This document shows, piece by piece, positions 12,543 through 42,745 of a DNA stretch of 58,197 nt; positions within the stretch are counted from its first letter, which is position 1; every line of letters begins with the position of its first letter. Made by a program: the position numbers and the translations under genes. The DNA is from Patescibacteria group bacterium (GTDB taxonomy: Bacteria; Patescibacteriota; Patescibacteriia; UBA1558; GWA2-36-10), in assembly GCA_041665545.1 (NCBI GenBank), contig JBAYIQ010000005.1, positions 1-58,197 on the forward strand, written 5' to 3'. A model generated the notes under the pieces. The model had not been told where the DNA came from and did no database searches. It saw nothing but the letters and a program-made list of their open reading frames with translations.

Positions 12543-12629
12543 GCCGAAGTGGCGGAACTGGCAGACGCGCTGGACTCAAAATCCAGTGACCGCAAGGTCG
12601 TGGAGGTTCAAGTCCTCTCTTCGGTACCA
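12543..12629 (+). tRNA. tRNA-Leu (CAA), class II, CCA encoded
   Basis: Cloverleaf folded manually: acceptor gccgaag/cttcggt, anticodon loop cuCAAaa, long variable arm. Confidence 0.85.
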
Positions 12630-12718
12630 CTCGATTCGCCTTTTGCTTCGCAAAAGTCTCACTCGCGGTCTACGGTGCTTATCGCACCTCCGACCATTTC
12701 ACAATAAATAATCGAGTG
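12628..12718 (+). repeat. R1: ~91-bp element bounded by cactcgattc...gaatcgagtg inverted repeats, starting on the CA of the tRNA-Leu CCA end
   Basis: About 90% identical to R2 (13232..13323) and R3 (47629..47720, opposite strand). Internal hairpins cttttgc/gcaaaag and ggtgc/gcacc. Confidence 0.65.
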
Positions 12719-12796
12719 CCCTGCCATTCGGCCCTGAGGGGCCTCAGGCCCTGAACGGGAGCGAACGAAGTGAGTCGAAGGGCATAAACAATTTCA

Positions 12797-12813
12797 GGGC
12801 CGTTAGCTCAGTT
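12797..12813 (+). repeat. Partial duplicate (17 nt) of the tRNA-Ala 5' end, followed by a ~80-nt hairpin-containing insert
   Basis: gggccgttagctcagtt is identical to the first 17 nt of the tRNA-Ala at 12895. Confidence 0.55.
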
Positions 12814-12894
12814 TCGCCCACAGGGCGACCACCCAGTGGGTGGGGCTAGTCATGTTGATTTGCTCATTAAAGTTTTTACAAAAAATTATTCTTT

Positions 12895-12971
12895 GGGCCG
12901 TTAGCTCAGTTGGCTAGAGCGCTTCCATGGCATGGAAGAGGTCGCAGGTTCGACCCCTGTACGGTCCACCA
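12895..12971 (+). tRNA. tRNA-Ala (GGC), CCA encoded
   Basis: G3:U70 in the acceptor stem. Anticodon loop auGGCau. Confidence 0.85.
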
Positions 12972-13061
12972 TAAACCATTCGCTACGCTCAGGTTTATGG
13001 CACTGCCATTTTATTTAGGGCAGCGCCGTGAACTTGAGGAGCGTAAGCGACGAATAGTTCA

Positions 13062-13138
13062 CGGGGTGTGGCGCAGTTGGCTAGCGCGCACGCATGGGGT
13101 GCGTGAGGCCGGAGGTTCAAGTCCTCTCACCCCGACCA
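13062..13138 (+). tRNA. tRNA-Pro (GGG), CCA encoded
   Basis: C1:G72. Anticodon stem cacgc/gcgtg with loop auGGGgu. An upstream 9-bp hairpin (ccgtgaact/agttcacgg) overlaps the tRNA start. Confidence 0.8.
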
Positions 13139-13155
13139 ATTTATAAATTAATCGG

Positions 13156-13233
13156 GGCAGGGTAGCTCAGTTTGGTTAGAGCGTGGGACTCATAAGCCCG
13201 AGGTCGTGGGTTCGATCCCCACCCCTGCTACCA
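13156..13233 (+). tRNA. tRNA with CAT anticodon, elongator-type (Met, or Ile2 if lysidinylated), CCA encoded
   Basis: Loop cuCAUaa. C11:G24 in the D-stem. G1:U72 wobble. One mismatch at 31:39. Confidence 0.7.
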
Positions 13234-13323
13234 CTCGATTCGCCTTTTGCTCCGCAAAAGTCTCACTCGTGGTCTCCGGTGCTTATCGCACCTCCGACCA
13301 TTCTCCATATCATGAATCGAGTG
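13232..13323 (+). repeat. R2: second copy of the tRNA-3'-flanking inverted-repeat element
   Basis: cactcgattcgccttttgctccgcaaaag...catgaatcgagtg. Begins on the CA of the preceding tRNA. Confidence 0.65.
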
Positions 13324-13406
13324 TTCCGAGCGAAGTCGAGGGACATGAGATAAAGAGAAGCGCATCGAGGGACACGAGAAATCACCATTCTCCAAAAAAA
13401 AACGGT

Positions 13407-13652
13407 ATGAAAAAATTTTTCTTTTATTTTGCCCGATGTAACGATAATACCCTTTATGCTGGTTACACAAATAATATAAAAAATAGAGAAATAAAACACA
13501 ACGACGGTAAGGGCGCAAAATACACTAAATGTAGATTACCAATAAAAATAATATACTGGGAGAAATTTGATACCAGGATTGAAGCCATGAAACGGGAAGC
13601 ACAAGTAAAACGTTGGAGTAAAATAAAAAAAGAAAAATTAATAAAAAATTAA
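13407..13652 (+). CDS. Small GIY-YIG nuclease-superfamily protein (81 aa, YhbQ/UPF0213-like)
   Basis: FYFARCNDNTLYAGYTNN...KHNDGKGAKYT and a C-terminal RE...KRW helix. The 5' extension of the listed ORF overlaps a tRNA and R2 and was trimmed to the ATG at 13407. Confidence 0.75.
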   Translation: MKKFFFYFARCNDNTLYAGYTNNIKNREIKHNDGKGAKYTKCRLPIKIIYWEKFDTRIEAMKREAQVKRWSKIKKEKLIKN

Positions 13653-13653
13653 A

Positions 13654-13715
13654 TTTTTTACGACGCGGGGTAGCCCGCCCGGCACGCCTACGGCGAAGCC
13701 GTGGCGGACGGGAGC
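13654..13715 (+). repeat. 20-nt duplicate of the tRNA-fMet 5' end plus upstream T-run (ttttttacgacgcggggtag), followed by a GC-rich motif leading into GIY-YIG #2
   Basis: Exact 20-nt match to 13987..14006. Motif cccgcccggcacgcctacggcg...gtggcggacgg is homologous to 12440..12478. Confidence 0.6.
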
Positions 13716-13730
13716 AGTACCACACTGAAT

Positions 13731-13985
13731 ATGCATATGAAAATATTACTTTTTTATACTTATGTCCTAAAAAGTAAAAAAGATAACAAATTGTATGTTG
13801 GATATACCGATAATCTAAACAAAAGAATCCAAAAACATAATGATGGAAAAGTTGAATCAACAAAAAATAGAAGACCATTTACATTATTATATTTTGAAGC
13901 TTGCCTAGATAAGTATAAAGCAATAAAAAGAGAAAAATATTTTAAAACGGGCTTTGGTAGGAGATTTTTAAAAAGTAGGATATAA
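13731..13985 (+). CDS. Small GIY-YIG nuclease-superfamily protein #2 (~84 aa)
   Basis: YTYVLKSKKDNKLYVGYTDNLNKRIQKHNDGK. About 45% identical to #1. The listed ORF starts at GTG 13701; ATG 13731 or 13737 is more plausible. Confidence 0.75.
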   Translation: MHMKILLFYTYVLKSKKDNKLYVGYTDNLNKRIQKHNDGKVESTKNRRPFTLLYFEACLDKYKAIKREKYFKTGFGRRFLKSRI

Positions 13986-13996
13986 TATTTTTTACG

Positions 13997-14073
13997 ACGC
14001 GGGGTAGAGCAGTTGGCAGCTCGCCAGGCCCATAACCTGGAGGTCGCCGGTTCGAGTCCGGCCCCCGCTACCA
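13997..14073 (+). tRNA. tRNA-Met (CAT), initiator-like, CCA encoded
   Basis: Unpaired C1xU72, A11:U24 and loop ccCAUaa. The anticodon stem has only two of the three canonical G:C pairs. Confidence 0.7.
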
Positions 14074-14117
14074 ATTTATACAATCCGAGGTAGCTCAGTG
14101 GTAGAGCAGTTGGCTGT

Positions 14118-14703
14118 ACATTTACATCGTGTATGTGGTATACTTATTGATGTATGCCAGATACAAGAAAATATGTCGATCGTGCTGAGTATTTAAAACA
14201 AGCAGTTGCTAAACGTCGTAAAGATGTGAAAATAATGCTTGTAAAATATAAGGGCGGTAAGTGTAAGACTTGTGGCTATAAAAAATCCGTAGAAGCTCTT
14301 GAGTTCCATCATATAAATGAAAGAAAAAAGAAGTTTGGAATTTCTGGGCAAGGATTAACTAGATCTTGGAAAAGTGTAAAGCAGGAAGCTGATAAATGCA
14401 TCTTGCTTTGCGCAAATTGCCACAGGGAATTGCACGCAAAATAGTGCAGCTTCCTCAAGTAATTGAGGTTGACAAACGGGGTGAACTGTCCCGCAAAACG
14501 GGAGCCCGCCAAAGGCGGTGCCGGGAAGCCTAAGTCTAAAAGATATGGTAATCCGCAGCCAAGCCCTGAACCAGATGGTTCAGGGAAGGTTCAGAGACTA
14601 TCCGAAAGGAGTAGGCAGTATTTACTAGCCGAAGCGCCCCGCATCCTAAAAAATTATAGGATGATGATATAGTCCATCCCTTTAGGAAACTTAAGGATCG
14701 ATG
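14118..14703 (+). mobile_element. Group I intron (IC3-like) in the tRNA anticodon loop, carrying an HNH ORF
   Basis: By eye, matches conserved group I segments of the Anabaena tRNA-Leu and Azoarcus tRNA-Ile introns as recalled (atatggtaatccgcagccaagccct, agagacta, gacaaacggggtgaa). The 5' exon ends in U and the intron ends in G. Confidence 0.65.
14154..14444 (+). CDS. HNH homing-endonuclease-like protein (96 aa), intron-encoded
   Basis: CKTCGY...EFHHINERKK...CANCHRELH: HNH motif with zinc-binding Cys pairs. Confidence 0.75.
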   Translation: MPDTRKYVDRAEYLKQAVAKRRKDVKIMLVKYKGGKCKTCGYKKSVEALEFHHINERKKKFGISGQGLTRSWKSVKQEADKCILLCANCHRELHAK

Positions 14704-14907
14704 TAACCAATTGGTCGTGGGTTCAAATCCCTCCCTCGGAGCCATTAAAAAAATATCAACTTCTGTTGGTATTTTTTTAATCTTGGCAACACCTCCTTTT
14801 AGTCGGAAAAATTATTTATTCATTCCAAATTTTATGCCGAAGCCAAATAAAAAACCATCCTGAGTGTAAGTCGAAGGATGATTTTTTATTTTTAGTCGAT
14901 AAGTAAT

Positions 14908-30313: not shown

Positions 30314-33300
30314 CTATTTTAGTTCTTCAGCATATTCAGCAAACACCCAGCCAACTTTATTTTCAGTTAAAGCTATTTGATACCAGCCAAATTTTTCTAA
30401 ACCCTGAGCCGCCACTTGACTAAGCAAGTCGTATTTTTCTCCGGCACTTACTTTGGCCACAACGGCTGTTTCTTTGGAAGCTTCCTGCCTGACATTGAGC
30501 CAACCAGTTGGTGTATCTTTAATAATAACTTGTTTCTTCATTAAAATATCTTCCGTAGCGGGTACTGTGCTACTAGAAGTGGAACTGGCACTTTCTGAAC
30601 CAAAACTAAAAGCCATATTATTATCAGCTAAAACAGGAATATTATCAAGCTTATTGACGTCAGTTTCAGAGGCGACGGTCACATTGTTGGCTGACCTAAG
30701 TTCGTCAGTCTTAATATATTTTGATAAATTTTGTCTAATATTAGCCAAAATACCATATTTATCAACTAACAAATACAAAACTATAAAAATCAAAACAAAA
30801 GTAATAAGCCAGACTTTATTTTGTCTGATATTTTTGAACAAGCGAGTAAAAAATTGCTTAATATAGATTAAAAAACTTGTCGATACTTTGGCCTTTGCTT
30901 CGACGCTAGCTATATTGGCTGGACTATTTTTGCTAACTGCTGCTTTCTTCTTTTTTCTGCGCCCACCAGAGGAATTCATTTTTTCCATATCAAGCGGCTT
31001 GCCAGTCAAAATATGCGACTGCAAGGCCATCTGACCATTGGCTATGGCTACTTGATGCTTCCACATGGAGAACAAGATGGTCACTAACAAACCAAAGCCG
31101 GTGACAAAAGCAATAATGATCCCCCACACCGAAATGGTCTGTATACCACCCAAGGCTCCCAAAAATCCGCGAGAGGCATCAGCTTGGCTCAATAGTGACT
31201 TCAATTCATCCAATTCTGTCTGCACACTAATAAAACTTTCTTTATTTTCTCGATAAGTCATAATTTTATCTTGCGGGGAGGCAGTATTTTCTTTTTGAGT
31301 ACGCAGAATTTTTTCTACTTTGCTATCAATATCATTTTTGAGTAATAAAGCTTGAGAAGAAAGTTGATTTTTTTCTAATTTCTTATAAAAATCATTGGCC
31401 TGCGTCTTGGCTATAGTCAAATCATTTTCAGCAATCTGCCAAATATCTCGCATTTTAATAAATTTTTTGACCGAAGCACCCGGAGCCAATTCAATCTCGC
31501 CAGCCGCATACAAAGTATCTAGCTGAACATCGTACTGAATATTGAAACCGCCATCATCCATAATGTGCTCTACTTTAGCTTCCTTTGGAAGATAAATCTT
31601 GAATGGCACTTTTTGAGCAGTCTTGGCTGGATTGGAAAGCATGATGTTCAAATCCACTGAACCAGAGGTGTACCAAGTGCTGACTATCGGAGCCGTGGCC
31701 TGCTGAACCACTTGACGCTGAACAGTGGTGACGGCTTTGTAGTCGGCTAATTTATTACGCACATATTTTATATCCGTCATATTCTCCTGCGAGATGGACA
31801 GTATTGAACTCAAAGTATCGCTATCCAGACGGCCCAGTTTGGTATTGATGTTCTGAATGGAGTTGGAGATGGTACCCATGGCTGTGAACATCTCCTCGGG
31901 CTTCACATTGTAAACATTGGTATTGTTGGTGGTACTACTGCCGGAGCCAACTTCAATATTATCAATACTTGTTTCTAGAGTAGCGATGCTAGCTTCAATA
32001 TTATCTAGTTGAGTTTTGATTAAAGCAATATCTGCCTTGATCAAAGTCACGTCGTCCTTGATGCCAGCCACATCGGACTGGATGGTGCTGATCTTAGTCA
32101 CTGGTACGGCTAATGTTTTTAAAATAGTAAAAGCGTCACTGCTAGCTGGCGCAAAGGGAAGATCTGGTTCTACTGTAATGGCTTTGGTTGTACCATTATA
32201 ATCATCTATTCTTCTGGCTACACCACTGTTTTGGCCAGAAGTAAAAGTCAGCAGTGCGTGAGCATATAAATCATTGACAGCGCTGGTAAGATTTGTGCCA
32301 AATAAAGAAATTGTCGGGCTAACTTCGGCTGTAGAAACAGCGGAGCGAATGGCAATCAAATCATTGGACAACAAATCAACTGAGTTACTCACCGCGTCTA
32401 TACTATTACCCAGTGTCGTTTCAGTGGACTGCAAATCAGATAATGTGGCTAGCGACCCACTGTCTAAATCCGCTCCTGATAAATAACGACCACTGTAGGC
32501 CCAAATAGAAGCCGCGTCCAAAGTAGCAGTATTTGAAGTCTGGGCCAAAATAGTAAAGGTGTCAGCATTGGCAGGAGCCAGAGCCAAAGCAGGATCGACC
32601 GTGATCGCCTTGGTGGTGCCATTGTAGCCCATAATCCTTCTCGCCTGACCAATATTTAAACCCGAGGTGAACAATAAGATATTATTTTTATAAAAATCAT
32701 TAGTGGCATTAGTCAAGGCAGTAGCAAATACTGTGGTTGATGGCGCCAAATCATTCACTGAAGTTTCCGAAACAATCAAGGCATTGATAATTTTATCTAG
32801 CTTAGTGCTGTTGACGCTAATAGCACTAGCCAAAACTGTTTCCGTATCTTGAATATCTGACAAAGTAGCTAAAGAACCAGAGTCTAAAGTGGCACCTGAT
32901 AAATACCTGTCGCCATAGGTCCAGATAGCGGCCGCATCAACTGCCGAGTTGGCTGTCTGCGCTAAAATAGTAAAGGTATCGGCATTAACCGGAGCTAAAG
33001 ATAAAGCTGGCGAAACAGTAACCTGTTTGCTAGCCCCGACATAATCGGTAATACGACGCGCTTGACCAGCGTTGACGCCAGAAGTAAAAACCAAGACACC
33101 GTTGTTATAAAAATCATTACTGTTGCTGGTCAAAGTTGTAATAAATTGATTATCTGAAGCGCCGGCATCATTGACCACTTTTTGTTCCACTATTAAATTA
33201 TTAATCAGCGTATTTAATTGTCCGCTCAAAGTACTTTCGGTAGATTGTATATTTGACAAAGTGGCTAAAGATCCGGAGTCTAAAGCGGCGCCTGACAAAT

Positions 33301-36300
33301 AGCGACCATCGTAGGCCCAAATAGCGGCTGCATCAAGTGAGGCATTGGCGGTTGAGGCCAAAATAGTAAAAGTATCACTGCTAGATGGAGCAACCGACAG
33401 AGCCGGAGTAATAGTCAATTTTTTGGTAGCGCCAACATAATTGCTAATGCGTCTAACCTGACCAGCATTGGATCCAGAGGTAAATACCAAAACACCGTCA
33501 TTATAAAAATCATCATTGGCATTGGTCAGGGTGGTAATAAATTCTGTGGTTGAGGGACTTGGGTCATCAACGGCTTTTTGGGCGACCAATAAATTATTTA
33601 TCAAATTGCTTAAACTATTGGCAACCGCTGTCACCTCAGCTGATGAAGCGCGAGAAGAAATAGTAGTATCAATATTGGTTTTTAATAAAGAGCCAATGCT
33701 ATTGATAGTCGTGATTGAGGTCAAAAGTGTATCCCAAACTCGTTGTGCCGTCAGATCGCCAGATGTTAGGGTGCGAGTTTCATAAGTCCAAATTTCAAGA
33801 GCTAAAGCGGCTAAACCATCATTCTCAATACTAGTAATTGTCCTGGTGCCCTCACTCCAAACATCTGATGCCGTCAAATTACTAGTGCCACGAGAAGAAA
33901 TAGTAGCATTCAAATTATCAACTATCAGTTTGCCAATAGAACCACCCGTAGAAAGCAAAGCTGATGCTATATTCCAGACTTGAGCTGGATCAGATAAGGT
34001 GACTCCACCACTCAAACTGCGGCCACCAGCTGACCAGACATCAGCCGCTGAAATATTATTTAAGGCCTGTATGTCAGCCAAAGTAGCCAAGGAGCCACTA
34101 TTCAAAGTAGCGTCAGTCAAACGACGAACATTGTACTCCCATATTTCTTGGGCAGTCGCCCCGCCACCGCCAGTAGCGCTAGAATAATAACTTAAAATAA
34201 TAAATTCATCATTGAAAGCTGGCGCATAAGGCATGGCCGCATCCACCGTAATTGCTTTGGTGGCGCCATTGTAGCTAGAAATTCTACGGGCAATACCAGC
34301 ATTCTGGCCACTCATCATAACCACCATTTGATTTTGATAAAAATTAGAAGTGGCTTGTGTCATGTCTGTCACAAAGACAGTGGCTGAAGCGGCCACATCA
34401 TTGACCAAGCCCCGCTTGATGGCCAAGCGATCATTTAAAAGTTGCCCAAAAGATCCATCAATATCAGCAAATGACCCCACTTGTGCTCCCCAAATACTAG
34501 TAGCCGTCAAGCCAGTTGACAACCACGGCACCACTGGTTGACCAGAAGAATGAAAATCCAAAGTACCAGTATCTACTGTACCCGATAAAACAGCCATATC
34601 ATCTATGTACACCGATGGCTGTCTAAAAATAATATAATCACCCATCGTGGCATTGGTCAGAGTGGTACTTAAAAGATGTGGCACTACTCCACTACCCTTC
34701 AAATACAATAACTGGGCAGTATTTTTTACAATATCAAATATCTTACCATTAGCGTCTTTAAATTTATAGCCGACCCATTGATTGGTGGTCCAACTTTTAT
34801 CAACATCCTCAACAATGATTGGCAAATAATTACCCAAGGAATCATCGATAATTTCACTGGTGCCAGAATCAGCGGCCACAAAAGCTGACTGCACGGAAAA
34901 TTTTATATCGGCAATAGCTGACTCTGTAGGCGTACCAGACACCACAAACTGTTGCCAATCATTAGCCGTGTCTTGTGCTGTCCAAGTAAGGTTGGCACCA
35001 GTCATACCCAGACCAGATAAGGTAACTGTCGGTAAATTAGTAGACCCATAATAACTATTGATATTCATATAGCCCGTAATGGCTAGTGGCTGGTTAGCCA
35101 CACCAATGACTTTGGCTGTATATTCAAGTGGCGCATCAGGATTCAGCGAATCCAGACGCCACGCATAACCACTAGCTGTGTGAGCAGTGGAATCATTGAG
35201 ACCTAACCCGGAAGTTCGCATATTACCAAAAGTGGTAAAATTAACTATGTCTTTAGTCGAGCTAGAATAATTGCCGCGAATATCAGCTCCGGGGATAGTC
35301 AGACCATAAAAATGTTCTGGTATCCTAGACATATTATTATAATCGGCCATGCCAAACAAAACCGGACTTAATAATTGAGTATTAGAGCCGGTAAATTGCA
35401 TCAATGATTCTGCTTCAAAAGTAGTGGTATTAGCTGGTATACTAATATCTGCCTCATTCCAAGAACCACGACCAAAAATACTACCACTATCCATAATACC
35501 CACATTGGCCGTGGTTTGGGCCACGCTGATTCCTGCGCCATATCCAGCTTGATTTAAGGTGACAGTATCCGAGACCGAGCCATCAAAAACATTATCAGAC
35601 ATCGTGAGGAAAGAATTACCATTGAGCCGTATACCAAAATTATTTACTGAAAAAATATTGTTAGCGATAGTCATTTTGGCTACGCCACTATTTAAATTAA
35701 CTGCTCCGCTAGTAATACCCGTCACACCATTATTATAAAACTGGCTATTAGCAATAGTGTACAAACGTCCAGACACAAAAGAAGCCGCACCATTAGCCGA
35801 GGTCAAAGCCGCATTAGTGTTGCGACATCCCATAAATATACTGCCATCAATGCCAACGTTTTGTGAAGCTGTAGCATTATAACCAGTGCCTAAAGTAGTG
35901 GCGCCAAAGTTGGTGGTCACAAAATATGCTCCCACAGTATTAGTGCCTTGAGTTTTGGCTGATACCGTATAAGCACGATCATAATAATTATAAAATACTG
36001 ACTTACTGACTGTCTGTGTTGGTTTGACCAATGTGGAAGTATAAGGATTGTTCATTATAGAAAAATTACTATACTGATTCTCAGTAGAAAGATGACTAAC
36101 GTTCAGATTCGCTAAACCTGACAAACCCACAGCTACTGTACCAAAAGCATTGCCCATGTGTATGGGCGTGGCCACTGTGGCACCGGTAGCATTTATTTCC
36201 TCATCCGACCACATGTGTATACTACGCTTGAGATTCAACACTGGCGAATTGTAAGGAGCTGAAGTAGAGTCCCGCTTGGCCTTGTGATGGAAAGTAAAAT

Positions 36301-39300
36301 TATTTGACCAGCCAGCCAAAGTGGCCGCTGTACCATTTTCTAGAAAACCAGAACCAAACTTTATCCTAGCTGATGGTGTGTATTTTTCTCCAGTATTATC
36401 CACCCATATTCTTGTGCGATCCGGATAGGTCACAACTCTTATTCTATCATTGCCCGTATCAGCACCGTTGGTAAAAATCATGGCTGGATTGCCATAGGCA
36501 TAGTCTGCCCAAACAAAACCCTCTTGAGGATTCATGGCCGCGTCAAAACTAGCGCGAAAAATATTAATACCAGTACTAGTCGCGTAGCCAGTACCGACAG
36601 TCTCACCTCCCACCCAAGCGCTGGTTGGTGGTGTAAAGTTACCCCAGTCAGTGGCCGAAGTACTGATAGAATTATCAAAAATCGCAAACTCATCCAAAGC
36701 GCCATCAAAAGGCGCAGCAAAATCATAACGATTACCGAGCTTAATCAAACCAGCGTTTATACCTCTAGTACCGACAGCCGACCCCTGACCAATGGTAAAG
36801 GCCGTGCCATTCAACCAAGCTCTTTTGGCGTTAGCTGTTTCATCCCAAGCCAAACGAAAATGATACCAAGTACCAGCGGTAGCTGAAAATGCTTGCCTTA
36901 ACAAGGTACCTTGAGCAGCGGCGGCATACAGGCCAACTTCCAAGAAACCTTCTGGGGTAGAACTGGAAGTATTTATGTGCCTGATAAATAAACGATCAGT
37001 ATCTATCTGAGCAACATTGGCTTGATCAAGCAAATACATACCATAAGGATGCGTGCTAGTAGCTGGATAACCGTTATAAGAGGGCTTGAACCAAAAATCA
37101 ATTGTGCCATTTTGTCTGGTGGTAATTGTGCCACTTTGGGCCTCAATATTATACCTAGTTGGCACCGCGCTACCAGTCAAAGTAAATGCTGGAGCTATCA
37201 TCACCGCGCTACCTATGCCATTCTGACCAGTCCAAGAACCAGTATTGCGTCGCATGTTATCCTGCAAGAGCAATTGACGCGCGCCAAATTTTGGTCCAGT
37301 CGGTGTGCCAGAATTTATACGCAAAGAGATTTCACTATTTGGCGATGTATAGGTACTACCTGCCGTAGCCGTACCAGCAGCACCAGTAGCACTACCAGTG
37401 ACATCATATTTACCACTAGTAGGGTTCCATTCGAAATCCCAAACTTCATATTTGGTATTGACACCAGTAGTAATTGGCACGCTACTATCAAGACCAAAAC
37501 TATTTCTAATAGCCGTAGAACCAATATATATCTTATCCCCTATTTCCGGATTTACTACGCCATTCCAACCACCTTTGTGTTTGATAATAAAATTAAGATA
37601 ACTGCTAGTAAAAGGAACACTCGGATAAGCCGTGCCTATCAGACCAGCACTTTCTCCGGTCACTCGCCAAGAACCAGTATTATTAAAATTATCAGAAAAA
37701 CCAAGGTCCGTGCTTAAATTATCAAATTTTACTTTATTACCCACACCAGCCGAACCAGCACCAGCATAAACACCAAAGCGACCACCTGCGTAGGTGGCAT
37801 TCGTCTGAGAAGTATCCCACGACCCTTCGGTCGGATCAGTATCACAATCTGTGGTAGCCCAAAACTTAGCATTGAGAGTGGTGCCTACGGCCTGCGCTTT
37901 GAGACAATACCAAGCAGAAGTGGCAAAGGCCTTGGAAAAAGCTGAGCCAATTACTGTCGGCACACCTGCCAAGGTAGTATATAAACCAATGGTATTGACT
38001 GCGTTAGTTTTGTTAATCAAAGCGGCATAGCCATTACCATCAATACTTTGCCTAAAAGTAAGACCTAATTTCCTATTACTACCGTCTTCCACATTATCCA
38101 TATACACCAATGCTTTGATGGTATAATCGCCATCACTCAAACTTCCATAGCTATTATGCAAAGCTATGTTGGCTTGATTTGTTTCATTGATATTTAATGT
38201 CCCGTCACTGATGTGCCAAATATAAGGAGCCGACGGCAAAACATTTACTGTACTGGCCATTCTTTGCACCTCTACCCAACCTGGGGAATTACCATATTCC
38301 AACATATACTGCTCATTGGGATTATAGGTGGCTCCTGGTGTCACAGCGCCAATCTTGGCTTCTTGCACGCCAGAAGACACGGTGATGGCTCCAGAGGAAA
38401 GTCTCTCAATACCACTCATGCCCATAGGAGTGGTCTGGTTGGTCGGAGAGGTGGTCCAAGAACTGACTGAATCAACTTTTAATCTAACCCAATAAGCATT
38501 AACTCCATTAACAGTTGTCTTGGCCGGAGTGCCAGTCAAATCATTTGGTGTCCAGGATAAAATACGACGATTGTTAGTAGCGCCATTTTCCGTCAAAAAA
38601 TTACTAGGATTAAAAGACTTCCATTGCCCGCCATTCAATCGGCTGATTGTTGCTGTTTGATCCGTGGTATAGCCCAAGGGCACCGGCTCGGTAAAGGTAA
38701 TAACGCCAGCGGCGATTACGCTAATGCGTCGATAAATAGGATCAGAATTATTATCGTCAATCATCACTACTTGATCAACACCAAAGTTAGCTTGATTGCC
38801 AGAGGTCACTGACACAGTATAAGAATTTATAGTTGTATTGGCTGACAATGGCACGGAATGTCCGGTACGCATTTGGTATTTATAAGCATCGCGGGGTGTA
38901 AAAGATGTCCAGCCAGCGCCATTATAAAATTGCCATGACAAGGAAGCGCTAGCATCCATGGCTACACCCATATTCAACTCCAAAGAATAAATCATGTTAC
39001 TACCTTGATCGCCAAAATATATAGCATCATCAGCCTCTACTGTTGGATTGGCCCCATCCACAAACATGGTCCAAGCTGATGTAGTAGCATAGTTTCCAGA
39101 AAAACCACTTGTACCATTATTATTATAAATATCAGTCAGGGGTATGGTGCCAATTTCTGCCACTTCCATATTTGGTGTGGGCAAAGAATTACGTCCACCA
39201 GCGGTAGCTAGTCCTGTCCAAACTGGAAACTGATTACCATCATCATTGGCTCCCATCCGTAAAGATGAAAAATTGTTATCAACTGCTTGGTTGGTAGCGC

Positions 39301-42300
39301 CAGCGACAGCTATGTTATCCAGTGGCTGCCAATTACCCACTACATTATCCTTGACATCTACCCAAGTATTGCCAGCATCAGCGGAATTGTTACCCAAGAA
39401 ACCCGTGTCAATATTACCATCAATATCTACAGCTAAGTCGCTTTTCATGGTCCGAAAAGCGTCTGAGCCAGCAACATAAAGATTTGTACGCCCGGCGCGA
39501 GCATTTTGTTGAGTAGCCGTAATAGCGCCAGTCATAGTATAAATACCCGCTCGCCTATCAGCTCCAGTAGGTAATTCGGTAGCTGGTCCCTTGGCCACAA
39601 AAGCACTTTGCCCCGTAGTATAGCCCACAACCAAGTTGGCTGTGACCGTAAGCGTTGTCGCATTTTCAACAGCCGCTACTATTCTAGTTGTGGGTAAAGA
39701 ATCATTATCGTCAATTATAATAGTATCACCGGGGTTAAAACCAGTAGTAGAAATTACTGTCAAAGTAGCGCTAACGGCTGTGTCAGCATTTAAATTTGTA
39801 TTGACTGCTGGACTAACATTATCCCAATATATATCTACCAGAGACGAAGCGGGAATAGCCGCTCCACTTTGACCAAAGGCCACTGAAGCATCGGAATCTA
39901 CTAATATTTTGCCAGGGATAGTCAGGCGATAATGCTTGTTAGCACTGGTATCAACATTTAGCTTGGAACCGGGGCAAACAACCGCTGATATCCAACCGCC
40001 ATTTTGTGAATAAGCCGAGTAGTTGGTACGCGTGCCTGCACCATCATTGATGGCATCACCTGACTTACCGGTGTAAGCCATAGCCGCGTCCCAATCACGA
40101 TCTATTGTTACCACGTGCTCTTGTTTGCTAGACCAGTTAAGATCATTTGTTAAAGCCGAGGCATCACCCGTATCTGGATCAGCTTTTCCATTACCAACTA
40201 TTATAAGATCACCATCAGCTGGGGCTGCGGTATTACCCGTACCGTAGGCCACAAAGAAAATGTGTCTATTGCTTAAAAAAGGATAACGAACAAGCGAAGT
40301 TGCCAAAGCTTCCATTTTAGCATAAAACAACAACACGGATGTGGTGCGCGCTAAAAGAGTTGTAGTGCCTGCTGGATTTTGAGTATGATTAAATGTGGTC
40401 CATTTCATTACCGCACCATCAGCCGGAGTACTAACGGACATGTTAGCTGAAATTTCAGCTATCTGAGCATTATCTGCTGTGTTATAACCAGTGACAAAAG
40501 CTGCGTCCAAAATAAGTGATGGCCCACCGCCACAATTAACATCTGTGCCATTTACTGTCGAAATAAAGCGAGTAACAACGACATTGGAATTATTATCCCA
40601 AATCGCGACACTGGGCGAAGTACCAACAGCCGCGGTAAATCCAGCAATACTAGCCACGCAGACTCTAGTAGTGGCTGTAGAATTTGCTGTCAATGTGGTT
40701 ATGGCTCCCTGGACTATTCTTTGTTTCCACGTAGCTTGCGCTATACTAGCATTTTTATCAGTAGTAAAACCAATCACTGTGGCGGCTGTGGTGATAATAG
40801 AAGCACCGCCCGAACAATTAGAATCAACCTCATTTACTGAAGCTACGGTTAAGGAAACAGTGGTTGTATTGGAATCCCACAAGTTTATTGTTTGATTAGC
40901 AGCAAAACCAGTTATTGAAGCCACACACAACCTAGTTGTCGCCGTAGAATTAGCAGTCAGGGTAGTAAATGGTACTCCATCGTTGACCCAGGAAGCTGCT
41001 GTACCACCAGTGGCTGGGGTAGTTAATTTTCTACTTTGGGTACCGGAAACAGAACCAGCCAATGTCCAATTTGAGCTGGCCGAAGAATAAGTGGCAGTCC
41101 AGTGTTGATTTTCGGTACGCCTTACTGTCGGCATACCAGTACCAGCTGCTGAGTTGCCAGCTACCATAGCGGTAAGCAAACCAGCAGCGCTAGAATTACC
41201 GGTCAAAACCAAAGGCATATTCACGGTTGGAGCGCTGGCGCCAGCAATATCAGTAACACCAATGGTTCTCAATGTGCCATCAACTGTAGGAAAATTACCA
41301 TAAGGAGCATTAGCGGCCCAAGTACCAAAAACAGGAGCGCCAGCGCCAAAGTTGCTAATACGAATACCGTAATGTTTGGTGGTCAATACACCCACTGCTG
41401 GATCAAAACGAAAATCAATCATAGCATGCCCAAAATTTCCTGGCGTCAAGTTTTCACCAGACAAGGCCTGATTGAACTGCCAAATAGTTTTGCGCAACAC
41501 TATTGTATCGTCTGGGTAGTTGTAAGCACCCTGAGTGCCGGTAACATATCCCGTGCAAGAGGTAGTGCAACTAGCTGTCGGAAACTCCAAAAGCTCAACC
41601 AAAATATCCGGATTTGATAAAGAAGTAGCCGTCGGATTTTCCATGGATAACATAATGCCAGACAAATCAGCGCTGGCATTGGGTTTGAAACCAATAAACT
41701 GTGAGGTGGCCAAAGTAGCATTGGCTGCCAAGGCCAAATACCCAATTGCCTGTCCACCAGCACTACCATCAGTCGTGCCACCAGGATTGATTGGGTTAAA
41801 ATTGCCAGACTCAGCATCACCGTTGACGCCGTCGCCAGAATAAGCCAAAGCCGTCAGCCAATTTGAACCACTTAAAGTGGTAGTTTGCCCAGAAACTTTT
41901 ACCAAGCCAGTGAAAGTAGCAGCATAAGCTGGTGTCCGATCTCTAAAAAGCCACTCAAAAAGTGGAGTTAAAGAAGCCACACCTAGTGTGGAAATAACCA
42001 AAAAGAAAATCATCCAGCCAGCCATCGCTCGCCTCAACAACAATTGATTTGGCTCCCTGAGTAATTTCTTAAAATCACCAAAACCAATGACCGGTGACAT
42101 GGCCTCCTGAACTTCGCGTCCTTTGGGTAATATCTTTTTTTCGTATGTTTGAGGAATATATTTAATAAATGGCTTAGCTAGCCACAACATAAACAATTTA
42201 AATTCTTTAACCCTAAAGTTAAATTTAATCTTCAGTGACTTGGGACTGGCAAATAAACTAACCGCTTTAGCCCCAAAAAATCCTAAAAATTTGACATAAA

Positions 42301-42745
42301 AAACAATTGTCGCGTACCAGACAATTTTTAATAAATAAAAAATAATTAAATATAGCGCTTTAAAAATATAAAATACCGCTTGAGCCAAGGCATTGGCTAT
42401 AAAACGCATACCTTTTTCTAAAGCTGGGGCTTTTTCTTTGATAAAATAATAAAAACGACTCAAATATTTCCAAGAAAAACGGAAAAAATTTTTCAAAAAT
42501 GGCCCTAAGTCCTCGACAATAAACTCTTTAACCATTGGAGCCAACCATTTTATAAAACGCCAACAATTTTTGAATATAAAAACCAAAACTACTGACAATA
42601 GATAGCCAACTAGCACTAATATTGAACCGACTATCTTAGCTAACCAGACCAATGAATAAAGTATAAATTCTAGAATTTTAATAATTGTTTTTCTGTGGCG
42701 GATAGATGGTTTTAGTCGCCACGAGGGAAGTAGATGTCTATTCAT
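30314..42745 (-). CDS. Giant membrane-anchored surface protein (4143 aa)
   Basis: Uninterrupted 12.4-kb ORF. N-terminal cluster of TM helices, then a Thr/Ser/Gly/Asn-rich ectodomain with parallel beta-helix-like repeats and a LamG/ConA-like segment (DFWFKPS...WYHFRLAWDE...FDGALDEFAIFD). Five ~133-aa tandem repeats follow, then a coiled-coil, two TM helices and a C-terminal SH3b-like domain (GWLNVR...GWYQI...GWV). Confidence 0.8.
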   Translation of the reverse strand: MNRHLLPSWRLKPSIRHRKTIIKILEFILYSLVWLAKIVGSILVLVGYLLSVVLVFIFKNCWRFIKWLAPMVKEFIVEDLGPFLKNFFRFSWKYLSRFYYFIKEKAPALEKGMRFIANALAQAVFYIFKALYLIIFYLLKIVWYATIVFYVKFLGFFGAKAVSLFASPKSLKIKFNFRVKEFKLFMLWLAKPFIKYIPQTYEKKILPKGREVQEAMSPVIGFGDFKKLLREPNQLLLRRAMAGWMIFFLVISTLGVASLTPLFEWLFRDRTPAYAATFTGLVKVSGQTTTLSGSNWLTALAYSGDGVNGDAESGNFNPINPGGTTDGSAGGQAIGYLALAANATLATSQFIGFKPNASADLSGIMLSMENPTATSLSNPDILVELLEFPTASCTTSCTGYVTGTQGAYNYPDDTIVLRKTIWQFNQALSGENLTPGNFGHAMIDFRFDPAVGVLTTKHYGIRISNFGAGAPVFGTWAANAPYGNFPTVDGTLRTIGVTDIAGASAPTVNMPLVLTGNSSAAGLLTAMVAGNSAAGTGMPTVRRTENQHWTATYSSASSNWTLAGSVSGTQSRKLTTPATGGTAASWVNDGVPFTTLTANSTATTRLCVASITGFAANQTINLWDSNTTTVSLTVASVNEVDSNCSGGASIITTAATVIGFTTDKNASIAQATWKQRIVQGAITTLTANSTATTRVCVASIAGFTAAVGTSPSVAIWDNNSNVVVTRFISTVNGTDVNCGGGPSLILDAAFVTGYNTADNAQIAEISANMSVSTPADGAVMKWTTFNHTQNPAGTTTLLARTTSVLLFYAKMEALATSLVRYPFLSNRHIFFVAYGTGNTAAPADGDLIIVGNGKADPDTGDASALTNDLNWSSKQEHVVTIDRDWDAAMAYTGKSGDAINDGAGTRTNYSAYSQNGGWISAVVCPGSKLNVDTSANKHYRLTIPGKILVDSDASVAFGQSGAAIPASSLVDIYWDNVSPAVNTNLNADTAVSATLTVISTTGFNPGDTIIIDDNDSLPTTRIVAAVENATTLTVTANLVVGYTTGQSAFVAKGPATELPTGADRRAGIYTMTGAITATQQNARAGRTNLYVAGSDAFRTMKSDLAVDIDGNIDTGFLGNNSADAGNTWVDVKDNVVGNWQPLDNIAVAGATNQAVDNNFSSLRMGANDDGNQFPVWTGLATAGGRNSLPTPNMEVAEIGTIPLTDIYNNNGTSGFSGNYATTSAWTMFVDGANPTVEADDAIYFGDQGSNMIYSLELNMGVAMDASASLSWQFYNGAGWTSFTPRDAYKYQMRTGHSVPLSANTTINSYTVSVTSGNQANFGVDQVVMIDDNNSDPIYRRISVIAAGVITFTEPVPLGYTTDQTATISRLNGGQWKSFNPSNFLTENGATNNRRILSWTPNDLTGTPAKTTVNGVNAYWVRLKVDSVSSWTTSPTNQTTPMGMSGIERLSSGAITVSSGVQEAKIGAVTPGATYNPNEQYMLEYGNSPGWVEVQRMASTVNVLPSAPYIWHISDGTLNINETNQANIALHNSYGSLSDGDYTIKALVYMDNVEDGSNRKLGLTFRQSIDGNGYAALINKTNAVNTIGLYTTLAGVPTVIGSAFSKAFATSAWYCLKAQAVGTTLNAKFWATTDCDTDPTEGSWDTSQTNATYAGGRFGVYAGAGSAGVGNKVKFDNLSTDLGFSDNFNNTGSWRVTGESAGLIGTAYPSVPFTSSYLNFIIKHKGGWNGVVNPEIGDKIYIGSTAIRNSFGLDSSVPITTGVNTKYEVWDFEWNPTSGKYDVTGSATGAAGTATAGSTYTSPNSEISLRINSGTPTGPKFGARQLLLQDNMRRNTGSWTGQNGIGSAVMIAPAFTLTGSAVPTRYNIEAQSGTITTRQNGTIDFWFKPSYNGYPATSTHPYGMYLLDQANVAQIDTDRLFIRHINTSSSTPEGFLEVGLYAAAAQGTLLRQAFSATAGTWYHFRLAWDETANAKRAWLNGTAFTIGQGSAVGTRGINAGLIKLGNRYDFAAPFDGALDEFAIFDNSISTSATDWGNFTPPTSAWVGGETVGTGYATSTGINIFRASFDAAMNPQEGFVWADYAYGNPAMIFTNGADTGNDRIRVVTYPDRTRIWVDNTGEKYTPSARIKFGSGFLENGTAATLAGWSNNFTFHHKAKRDSTSAPYNSPVLNLKRSIHMWSDEEINATGATVATPIHMGNAFGTVAVGLSGLANLNVSHLSTENQYSNFSIMNNPYTSTLVKPTQTVSKSVFYNYYDRAYTVSAKTQGTNTVGAYFVTTNFGATTLGTGYNATASQNVGIDGSIFMGCRNTNAALTSANGAASFVSGRLYTIANSQFYNNGVTGITSGAVNLNSGVAKMTIANNIFSVNNFGIRLNGNSFLTMSDNVFDGSVSDTVTLNQAGYGAGISVAQTTANVGIMDSGSIFGRGSWNEADISIPANTTTFEAESLMQFTGSNTQLLSPVLFGMADYNNMSRIPEHFYGLTIPGADIRGNYSSSTKDIVNFTTFGNMRTSGLGLNDSTAHTASGYAWRLDSLNPDAPLEYTAKVIGVANQPLAITGYMNINSYYGSTNLPTVTLSGLGMTGANLTWTAQDTANDWQQFVVSGTPTESAIADIKFSVQSAFVAADSGTSEIIDDSLGNYLPIIVEDVDKSWTTNQWVGYKFKDANGKIFDIVKNTAQLLYLKGSGVVPHLLSTTLTNATMGDYIIFRQPSVYIDDMAVLSGTVDTGTLDFHSSGQPVVPWLSTGLTATSIWGAQVGSFADIDGSFGQLLNDRLAIKRGLVNDVAASATVFVTDMTQATSNFYQNQMVVMMSGQNAGIARRISSYNGATKAITVDAAMPYAPAFNDEFIILSYYSSATGGGGATAQEIWEYNVRRLTDATLNSGSLATLADIQALNNISAADVWSAGGRSLSGGVTLSDPAQVWNIASALLSTGGSIGKLIVDNLNATISSRGTSNLTASDVWSEGTRTITSIENDGLAALALEIWTYETRTLTSGDLTAQRVWDTLLTSITTINSIGSLLKTNIDTTISSRASSAEVTAVANSLSNLINNLLVAQKAVDDPSPSTTEFITTLTNANDDFYNDGVLVFTSGSNAGQVRRISNYVGATKKLTITPALSVAPSSSDTFTILASTANASLDAAAIWAYDGRYLSGAALDSGSLATLSNIQSTESTLSGQLNTLINNLIVEQKVVNDAGASDNQFITTLTSNSNDFYNNGVLVFTSGVNAGQARRITDYVGASKQVTVSPALSLAPVNADTFTILAQTANSAVDAAAIWTYGDRYLSGATLDSGSLATLSDIQDTETVLASAISVNSTKLDKIINALIVSETSVNDLAPSTTVFATALTNATNDFYKNNILLFTSGLNIGQARRIMGYNGTTKAITVDPALALAPANADTFTILAQTSNTATLDAASIWAYSGRYLSGADLDSGSLATLSDLQSTETTLGNSIDAVSNSVDLLSNDLIAIRSAVSTAEVSPTISLFGTNLTSAVNDLYAHALLTFTSGQNSGVARRIDDYNGTTKAITVEPDLPFAPASSDAFTILKTLAVPVTKISTIQSDVAGIKDDVTLIKADIALIKTQLDNIEASIATLETSIDNIEVGSGSSTTNNTNVYNVKPEEMFTAMGTISNSIQNINTKLGRLDSDTLSSILSISQENMTDIKYVRNKLADYKAVTTVQRQVVQQATAPIVSTWYTSGSVDLNIMLSNPAKTAQKVPFKIYLPKEAKVEHIMDDGGFNIQYDVQLDTLYAAGEIELAPGASVKKFIKMRDIWQIAENDLTIAKTQANDFYKKLEKNQLSSQALLLKNDIDSKVEKILRTQKENTASPQDKIMTYRENKESFISVQTELDELKSLLSQADASRGFLGALGGIQTISVWGIIIAFVTGFGLLVTILFSMWKHQVAIANGQMALQSHILTGKPLDMEKMNSSGGRRKKKKAAVSKNSPANIASVEAKAKVSTSFLIYIKQFFTRLFKNIRQNKVWLITFVLIFIVLYLLVDKYGILANIRQNLSKYIKTDELRSANNVTVASETDVNKLDNIPVLADNNMAFSFGSESASSTSSSTVPATEDILMKKQVIIKDTPTGWLNVRQEASKETAVVAKVSAGEKYDLLSQVAAQGLEKFGWYQIALTENKVGWVFAEYAEELK
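32200..33650. repeat. Intragenic tandem repeats (~400-bp period, about 4 copies) inside the giant gene
   Basis: Near-identical DNA blocks (...gagtctaaag...cctgataaata...cccaaatag...) recur at about 32450, 32870 and 33255. Corresponds to the FTSGxNxGxxRRIxxYxGxTK...DTFTILA...LDSGSLATLS protein repeats. Confidence 0.7.

Follow-up and report, generated by a model that had tools for sequence, protein, structure and literature searches.

A predicted self-splicing, IA-like group I intron with an HNH gene in its P1 loop interrupts a Patescibacteria tRNA-Asn(GUU) gene

The 58,197-nucleotide stretch of DNA analysed here (the window) comes from contig JBAZSO010000005.1 in a draft metagenome-assembled genome (MAG), GCA_041662385.1, whose organism is listed by NCBI as Patescibacteria group bacterium. 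It contains a tRNA-Asn(GUU) gene that is very probably interrupted between tRNA positions 35 and 36 by an IA-like group I intron, which we expect to self-splice. The loop of the first intron helix, P1, carries an open reading frame (ORF) for a small HNH endonuclease. The original prediction had already proposed a group I intron within a tRNA-Asn(GUU) gene at this locus, and this assignment is borne out by the score against Rfam family RF00028, by covariation, by intron-less alleles and by 80% identity to an intron with demonstrated self-splicing. The parts of the gene are as follows.

14084-14744, + strand: split tRNA-Asn(GUU) gene, reported as tRNA-Asn(gtt) with a 586-nt intron by ARAGORN with introns allowed
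14084-14117, + strand: 5' exon, tRNA positions 1-35, ending C32 U33 G34 U35 (ARAGORN with introns)
14118-14703, + strand: group I intron of 586 nt between tRNA positions 35 and 36 (RF00028 and intron-less alleles)
14703, + strand: terminal intron guanosine (omega-G), read in the sequence
14704-14744, + strand: 3' exon, tRNA positions 36-76, with U36 A37 A38 ... G73 and an encoded CCA (ARAGORN)

Joining the exons at 14117/14704 gives a 75-nt cloverleaf that includes CCA and has the anticodon loop CUGUUAA (ARAGORN). Direct reading finds an acceptor stem TCCGAGG/CCTCGGA, G73 and a 5-nt variable loop, and every coordinate first proposed for the two exons and their canonical cloverleaf was confirmed. 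A check against the Rfam model Intron_gpI (RF00028) had also been proposed; the model matches positions 14473-14696 with 81.2 bits (E 4e-19), against a gathering score of 50. U14117 and G14446 form a U.G wobble at the 5' splice site, and G14703 is the last base of the intron, so that the exon-final U and intron-final G predicted earlier are both present. In its default mode ARAGORN reports six tRNA genes in the window and none at 14084-14744. Default tRNA finders miss the split gene, and the MAG would therefore wrongly appear to be without tRNA-Asn. A weak YrlA match at 14042-14107 and a weak tmRNA match at 14716-14733 were dismissed as merely tRNA-like sequence.

Introns at this site are already known. 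A survey of 95 complete Patescibacteria genomes identified position 35/36 of tRNA-Asn as the commonest tRNA intron site of the phylum, accounting for 15 of 22 intron-containing tRNA genes (Nakagawa et al., 2026, mSystems; PMC13011429). The intron of GCA_016700035.1 self-splices precisely in vitro, and the sequenced product shows excision at 35/36; HNH (PF01844) genes are present in four tRNA-Asn introns, for example those of GCA_000503835.1 (WWE3) and GCA_001029735.1 (UBA1384) (PMC13011429). The original prediction named Leu(UAA), fMet, Ile(CAU) and Arg tRNAs as the known bacterial hosts of group I introns and took Asn for an addition to them; in this respect it is out of date. The tFind work had brought the bacterial tRNA types known to contain introns from 4 to 21 (Williams, 2020; bioRxiv 10.1101/2020.01.27.920355), and the Asn type is credited to it through its citation in PMC13011429.

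We took the validated intron sequence from the supplementary tables of PMC13011429 and compared it with the window's ribozyme after removal of the HNH ORF and of a 33-nt P4 insert. The two are 80.5% identical over 210 columns and the mature tRNAs are equal at 66 of 75 positions. Host tRNA, site and phylum are the same, the splice context GGCUGU/...G/UAACCAAUUGG (slashes mark the splice sites) is identical and P7.1 is present in both. The GCA_016700035.1 intron is 234 nt long and ORF-less, whereas that of the window is 586 nt long, with the HNH gene in the P1 loop and a two-hairpin insert in P4. By analogy with this relative, the window's own copy would be expected to splice. In the published HNH members, as in the window, the PF01844 ORF follows the 5' splice site, precedes the guide sequence and runs up to ...GTGCAGCTTCC. 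The window's intron is an addition to the described tRNA-Asn 35/36 family, and its MAG lies outside the published data set (PMC13011429).

A scan of one genome per GTDB species, using as pattern J8/7-P7 joined to an Asn-type 3' exon, found at least 120 loci. The same split gene, with the loop CUGU/intron/UAA, is present in about 107 of the 120 loci listed. Among the matches listed, 78 introns are 180-345 nt long and 30, including that of the window, are 511-630 nt long. An HNH homologue, starting 20-80 nt into the intron, is found in all 30 of the long introns and in none of the 78 short ones, which places the HNH intron in 29 further GTDB species representatives. The exon end CUGU is common to 106 of 108 related loci in the same set; a G precedes UAA in all of them, although the search pattern itself demanded that G. 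Most of the listed loci are from Patescibacteria, but some carry the labels Omnitrophota, Elusimicrobia, Planctomycetales/Pirellulaceae, Desulfocicer or 'uncultured Gammaproteobacteria'; such labels are given to MAGs automatically, and some may be unreliable.

Ten 'viral' loci on IMG/VR contigs (L192-L201) also match a pattern of intron end and Asn 3' exon, and in about half of them the Asn-type tRNA gene is split; L192 lies within a tRNA array and L195 carries the HNH gene. These may be phage-borne copies or misclassified Patescibacteria contigs. The idea that phages carry the intron between hosts was set aside because the viral loci are too few and their classification too uncertain.

Uninterrupted versions of the gene also exist. 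A metagenome scan for the exact 34-nt exon junction recovered 61 contigs with an intron-less tRNA-Asn gene (...GCAGTTGGCTGTTAACCAATTGGTC...), some of which differ from the window's spliced tRNA in the T arm only. Several are syntenic with the window, with a 97%-identical tRNA-Met directly upstream, and in two (L154 and L187) the upstream protein-coding gene is also shared.

The fold of the ribozyme was examined by a covariation test in which 65 ribozymes of the window's type (the window and 64 others) were aligned with a homology-built structure of 51 pairs; in the controls the pairing partners were slid by 1-3 columns. In the proposed structure 93.5% of cells are paired, compared with 34-47% in the slid controls, and the covariation score is 0.498, compared with at most 0.108. 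Changes on both sides occur in 35 of the 51 pairs. Compensatory changes are found in P2, P3, both halves of P4, P5, P6a, P7.1, P7.2, P8 and P9; P7 does not vary and P6 hardly does. The core pseudoknot consists of P3 and P7, and the window's intron keeps every invariant core nucleotide of the tRNA-Asn intron family. The elements are assigned as follows.

14113-14117, + strand: P1 5' strand GCUGU; exon CUGU is opposite intron GCAG in all loci examined
14446-14450, + strand: internal guide sequence, the P1 3' strand GCAGC, starting 1 nt after the HNH stop codon
14453-14468, + strand: P2 hairpin CCUCAA-GUAA-UUGAGG; six of six pairs with compensatory changes
14477-14481, + strand: P3 5' strand CGGGG, partner 14637-14641; four of five pairs covary and 99% of cells are paired
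14487-14488, + strand: lower part of the P4 5' strand, UG, partner 14556-14557 (covariation alignment)
14489-14521, + strand: GC-rich 33-nt insert in the P4 5' strand, two hairpins at 14489-14503 and 14504-14521 (relatives and RNAfold)
14522-14525, + strand: upper part of the P4 5' strand, CGGG, partner 14552-14555; three of four pairs covary
14529-14548, + strand: P5 hairpin with an exact 11-nt GAAA-tetraloop receptor, CCUAAG ... UAUGG, read in the sequence
14552-14557, + strand: P4 3' strand UCCGCA (covariation alignment)
14558-14590, + strand: P6 (GCC/GGU) and P6a hairpin; the P6 G.U pair varies on one side only and five of five P6a pairs covary
14594-14600, + strand: P7 5' strand GAGACUA with a bulged A, partner 14670-14675; invariant in 65 of 65
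14601-14610, + strand: P7.1 hairpin UCC-GAAA-GGA (covariation)
14614-14630, + strand: P7.2 hairpin; three of three basal pairs covary
14637-14641, + strand: P3 3' strand CCCCG (covariation)
14642-14663, + strand: P8 hairpin; four of five pairs covary
14664-14675, + strand: J8/7 and P7 3' strand, GAUAUAGUCC, nearly invariant
14679-14696, + strand: P9 hairpin with the GAAA loop at 14686-14689 (covariation); the stem has one U.U mismatch

The alignment also reveals a tertiary contact: the loop of P9 (L9) is GAAA in all 19 introns with a CCUAA-type P5 and in 18 of the 46 others. The Rfam alignment places P2 at 14476-14494, a small hairpin at 14500-14509 and P3 as GGCGG at 14514-14518. This arrangement is overruled by insert-less relatives and by covariation; Rfam misplaces P2 and P3 in the window because of the 33-nt insert. 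Two segments had been given to P7 in the original prediction and have to be reassigned: atatggtaatccgcagccaagcc comprises the P5 3' strand, J5/4, the P4 3' strand and the start of P6, and 'agagacta', which had been taken for the P7 3' strand, is J6/7 and the P7 5' strand. A third, gacaaacggggtgaa, had been placed in the P3/P4 region and does lie there, as J2/3, P3 and J3/4.

The HNH gene and a candidate promoter that precedes it are both located in the P1 loop.

14154-14444, + strand: HNH endonuclease ORF, 96 amino acids and a TAG stop codon (Pfam, PHROGs)
14115-14144, + strand: promoter-like site, TGTACA, 18 nt and TATACT, with TG before the -10 box (consensus scan)

The ORF, which had been noticed near the 5' end of the intron, is confirmed by matches to Pfam HNH PF01844 (28.1 bits, cut-off 21.4) and to phrog_2255, 'HNH endonuclease' (E 1.8e-27). 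Taken together, the tRNA call, the intron-model match and these HNH matches exceed chance expectation by a wide margin. Short introns of the family start G-A-A-A...ACGCAGC, which, together with the pairing of exon CUGU with intron GCAG at every locus, identifies the ORF as an insertion in the P1 loop. Its stop codon (14442-14444) is only 1 nt from the guide GCAGC, whereas in most homologues the ORF continues through the guide, and so through P1, into P2. The protein database holds 661 homologues at E <=0.001, and the named ones are mostly from Patescibacteria lineages. The closest are about 94%, 87% and 82% identical and occupy the same intron in the same tRNA gene. Synonymous and non-synonymous codon changes with respect to the three closest homologues number 13:6, 36:13 and 33:18, and by this measure the ORF is under purifying selection. 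Residues C37, C40, H53, C86, N88, C89 and H90 are invariant in 35 sequences and H52 is conserved. An AlphaFold2 (AF2) model (pLDDT 92.2) places a long basic helix at the N terminus (residues 7-32), ahead of a beta-beta-alpha core with strands and helix in the expected order. An NCBIfam match to IscB is sub-threshold (12.7 bits against 175) and, like a weak match in a PDB sequence search to the HNH domain of a group II intron maturase (E 0.003), says nothing beyond 'HNH'.

The -10 box of the promoter-like site ends 9 nt before the ATG of the HNH gene. Among 28 intact intron ORFs, 18 have a TA[TC]A[AC]T box within 20 nt of the ATG, ending 2-11 nt and most often 9 nt upstream of it; the control, random stretches taken from these ORFs, gives an average expectation of 0.32. 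A TGn extension is present in nine of the 18 boxes, and a Shine-Dalgarno-like motif in just two of the 28 homologous intron ORFs. This pattern suggests an internal promoter that would produce a leaderless HNH mRNA without the 5' exon.

The identity of the host tRNA depends on the exact junction. ARAGORN obtains a formally acceptable cloverleaf from three junctions, Asn GUU, Tyr GUA and Thr GGU. Only 14117/14704 leaves a U before the 5' splice site together with a G at the end of the intron, and only this junction yields the GGCTGTTAACC of the 61 intron-less alleles. Bacterial tRNA-Asn is marked by U1-A72 and G73, which are not known as features of tRNA-Thr or tRNA-Tyr; bacterial tRNA-Thr has G1-C72 and A73. 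Every homologous split gene among the matches listed has U1-A72 and G73. On the evidence of the terminal G, the exon-final U, these identity elements and the intron-less alleles, three other anticodon readings were rejected: Tyr GUA, with the junction shifted downstream by one base, and Thr GGU and Thr UGU, with it shifted upstream by one and by two bases; for Tyr GUA this agrees with its earlier rejection in the original prediction. Thr(UGU) deserves comment since at most homologous loci ARAGORN reports Thr(tgt) and puts the intron at 33/34, as tFind does for many, and the published survey also met this call for split Asn genes and recorded it as a miscall (PMC13011429). With the exon ending at U14115 the shifted intron would end in A14701 rather than G, the intron-less alleles would be left without an explanation since GGCTGTTAACC arises from 14117/14704 only, U1-A72 and G73 would fit the wrong tRNA, and the sequenced splicing products of the 80%-identical relative are cut at 35/36. 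We consider a tRNA-Thr(UGU) host to be extremely improbable. The subgroup of the ribozyme was likewise open to a second reading. The resemblance of P4-P6, J8/7, the 11-nt P5 receptor and the GAAA L9 to the Azoarcus sequence is close, and the original prediction had named the intron IC3, akin to those of Azoarcus tRNA-Ile and Anabaena tRNA-Leu. About 25 of 108 tRNA-Asn introns among the matches listed moreover have a compact core, AGAGACUA-GAUACC..., of IC3-like appearance, with no space for P7.1 and P7.2 because only 30-54 nt separate the P7 strands. In the Michel-Westhof scheme P7.1 and P7.2 between P7 and the P3 3' strand are the hallmark of subgroup IA. In the window's intron 36 nt separate P7 from the P3 3' strand and fold as P7.1 and P7.2 with the support of covariation, so that the IC3 label is unsupported; the ribozyme is IA-like. 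Covariance-model classification assigns 25 of 28 introns at 35/36 to IA and no Patescibacteria tRNA intron to IC (PMC13011429). An IC3 ribozyme is thus very unlikely here.

Several observations weigh against a working intron with a homing nuclease. The P9 stem has a U.U mismatch and the T stem a U50.U64 mismatch (GTGGG/CCCTC, 14717-14721 with 14733-14737), so that reduced activity is possible. No convincing P10, in which UAACC of the 3' exon would pair with bases preceding the guide, was found in the window or in ORF-less relatives. The 33-nt insert is missing from the three closest relatives (L121, L123 and L125), and no recognizable separate DNA-binding domain accompanies the HNH core in the 96-residue protein, whose fold matches to solved HNH nucleases are weak. 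Foldseek returns HNH nucleases exclusively (T4 endonuclease VII, Cap5, Cas9 HNH domains and Gme HNH), with E >0.1 and TM of about 0.4. The mismatches, and an insert in core P4 that is missing from relatives with 81-94% identical HNH proteins, could be taken to mean that the intron is a decaying, splicing-defective copy and the gene a tRNA-Asn pseudogene with a backup copy elsewhere in the genome. According to RNAfold, P4 remains paired in both halves when the two hairpins form, and the result is a perfect four-way junction with zero unpaired bases. Two hairpins occur at exactly the same P4 site in five other tRNA-Asn introns (L020, L108, L087, L079 and L025), and several more have a single bulged U there. 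The insert is present in three assemblies of the source organism (NCBI, ENA and Logan), and the window contains no further copy of it even when three mismatches are permitted. With P4 intact and the hairpin pair recurring at one site, the insert looks like a tolerated, recurrent peripheral module rather than damage. Since the invariant core nucleotides are all kept, the covariance-model score is far over threshold, the HNH ORF is intact and apparently under purifying selection, and genomes with both an intron-containing and an intron-less copy for one anticodon are rare (PMC13011429), we find decay improbable. Slightly less remote, though still unlikely, is a role for the HNH protein other than homing, as a maturase-like splicing helper or a domesticated nuclease. 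The protein has only 96 residues, the long basic N-terminal helix of the model could bind RNA as well as DNA, and the closest solved sequence is, weakly, the group II intron maturase domain noted above. Yet 78 of 108 introns among the matches listed have no ORF, as is true of the self-splicing relative, and the HNH protein is accordingly unneeded for splicing. The catalytic His and Asn do not vary, nor do the four Cys residues, the ORF is truncated in four of 33 intron ORFs examined, and HNH similarities cross ribozyme types as would those of a mobile gene. This pattern of presence, absence and degeneration, in combination with many intron-less alleles that have an identical target, fits a homing endonuclease gene, and a homing endonuclease is most likely what the ORF encodes.

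With regard to the T stem, position 64 is likewise mismatched (CCCCC) in the nearest intron-less alleles and in L121; in L082 the stem is perfect (CCCAC).

The compact-core introns include L009, L015, L022, L034, L036, L037, L041, L050, L068 and L074, and also L075, L076, L077, L083, L090, L094, L098, L105, L109 and L115, with others. Of about 25 such introns among the matches listed, 5-7 carry a homologous HNH gene, and the nearest relative of each full-length HNH sequence from a compact intron sits in a P7.1-type intron. Because HNH kinship cuts across ribozyme types in this way, the data suggest transfer of the nuclease gene from one ribozyme scaffold to another at a single tRNA site.

Taking the locus as a tRNA-Asn(GUU) gene with an IA-like intron and a homing nuclease, we propose the following course of events. 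The tRNA cluster would be transcribed and the intron would fold into P1-P9 with the P3/P7 pseudoknot; GCUGU at the exon end and the guide GCAGC, 329 nt further on, would pair as P1. The first attack, after U14117, would be made by free guanosine; the terminal G14703 would then take the place of the guanosine and the exons would join to give the anticodon loop CUGUUAA. An extended -10 promoter just upstream of the ATG would drive the HNH gene separately and yield a leaderless mRNA, and since this mRNA would be without the 5' exon, its translation would not disturb folding of the ribozyme. The HNH protein may cut intron-less tRNA-Asn genes around GGCTGT/TAACC, after which repair would copy the intron in.

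It is informative to compare the intron with well known systems. The IC3 introns of Azoarcus tRNA-Ile(CAU) and cyanobacterial tRNA-Leu(UAA) are not known to contain P7.1, P7.2 or an ORF. Like the window's intron they are small, interrupt the anticodon loop and form a short P1 from loop nucleotides; L9 GAAA docks into an 11-nt P5 receptor, and P4-P6 and J8/7 are similar. They differ in host tRNA and in insertion position. The td, nrdB and sunY introns of phage T4 belong to IA, have P7.1 and P7.2, and are found in protein-coding hosts; their ORFs lie in P6 or P9 loops, have their own expression signals and are mostly of the GIY-YIG type. The window's intron likewise combines IA architecture with an endonuclease ORF looped out of a peripheral element, but has a tRNA host, its ORF is in the P1 loop and the product is a minimal HNH protein. 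With I-HmuI, T4 endonuclease VII and Gme HNH the modelled protein appears to share the beta-beta-alpha metal core and the four-Cys zinc site; it differs in its length of 96 amino acids, in having no extra DNA-binding domains and in the weakness of the structural matches.

Although the current understanding of such introns is not overturned, the P4 insert, the putative internal promoter and the sharing of a nuclease between scaffolds provide modest, testable leads. We would suggest only tentatively that, as far as we found, the two-hairpin P4 module, the putative HNH promoter for a leaderless mRNA and the occurrence of the HNH gene in both IA-like and compact IC3-like ribozymes have jointly gone undescribed. 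If so, the P4 module at the bulged-U site could be a new peripheral domain that tunes folding or splicing, and a promoter of its own would uncouple nuclease expression from tRNA maturation. The tRNA-Asn intron family is far larger than the 15 published genes, with about 107 species representatives among the matches listed, some 28% of them with HNH. There is also a consequence for annotation, in that tools which allow introns often label the homologous genes tRNA-Thr.

Other features of the neighbourhood were noted. The tRNA cluster upstream (12543-14073) contains two small GIY-YIG ORFs (PF01541) of 82 and 94 amino acids, at 13404-13649 and 13701-13985. The second is bracketed by a 26-nt direct repeat (13648-13673 and 13982-14007) that takes in the initial 10 nt of tRNA-Met. 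The 5' end of tRNA-Ala recurs as an exact 17-nt copy (12797-12813 and 12895-12911), and a 74-nt repeat, 96% identical (12625-12698 and 13229-13302), has its start within the final bases of tRNA-Leu and the other tRNA-Met. A GIY-YIG ORF is also found immediately upstream of tRNA-Asn in L121, L122 and L127. These look like small GIY-YIG cassettes that insert at tRNA genes.

GC-rich palindromic units (...GTCATCCCGAGCGAAGTCGAGGGATC...) occur in the P5 and P6 loops of L021, and L127 has a similar one in the intergenic DNA after tRNA-Asn; they resemble miniature repeat elements of Patescibacteria genomes. Elsewhere in the window, a giant ORF of 4143 amino acids (30314-42745, - strand) contains internal repeats of about 400 nt at 32121-34672.

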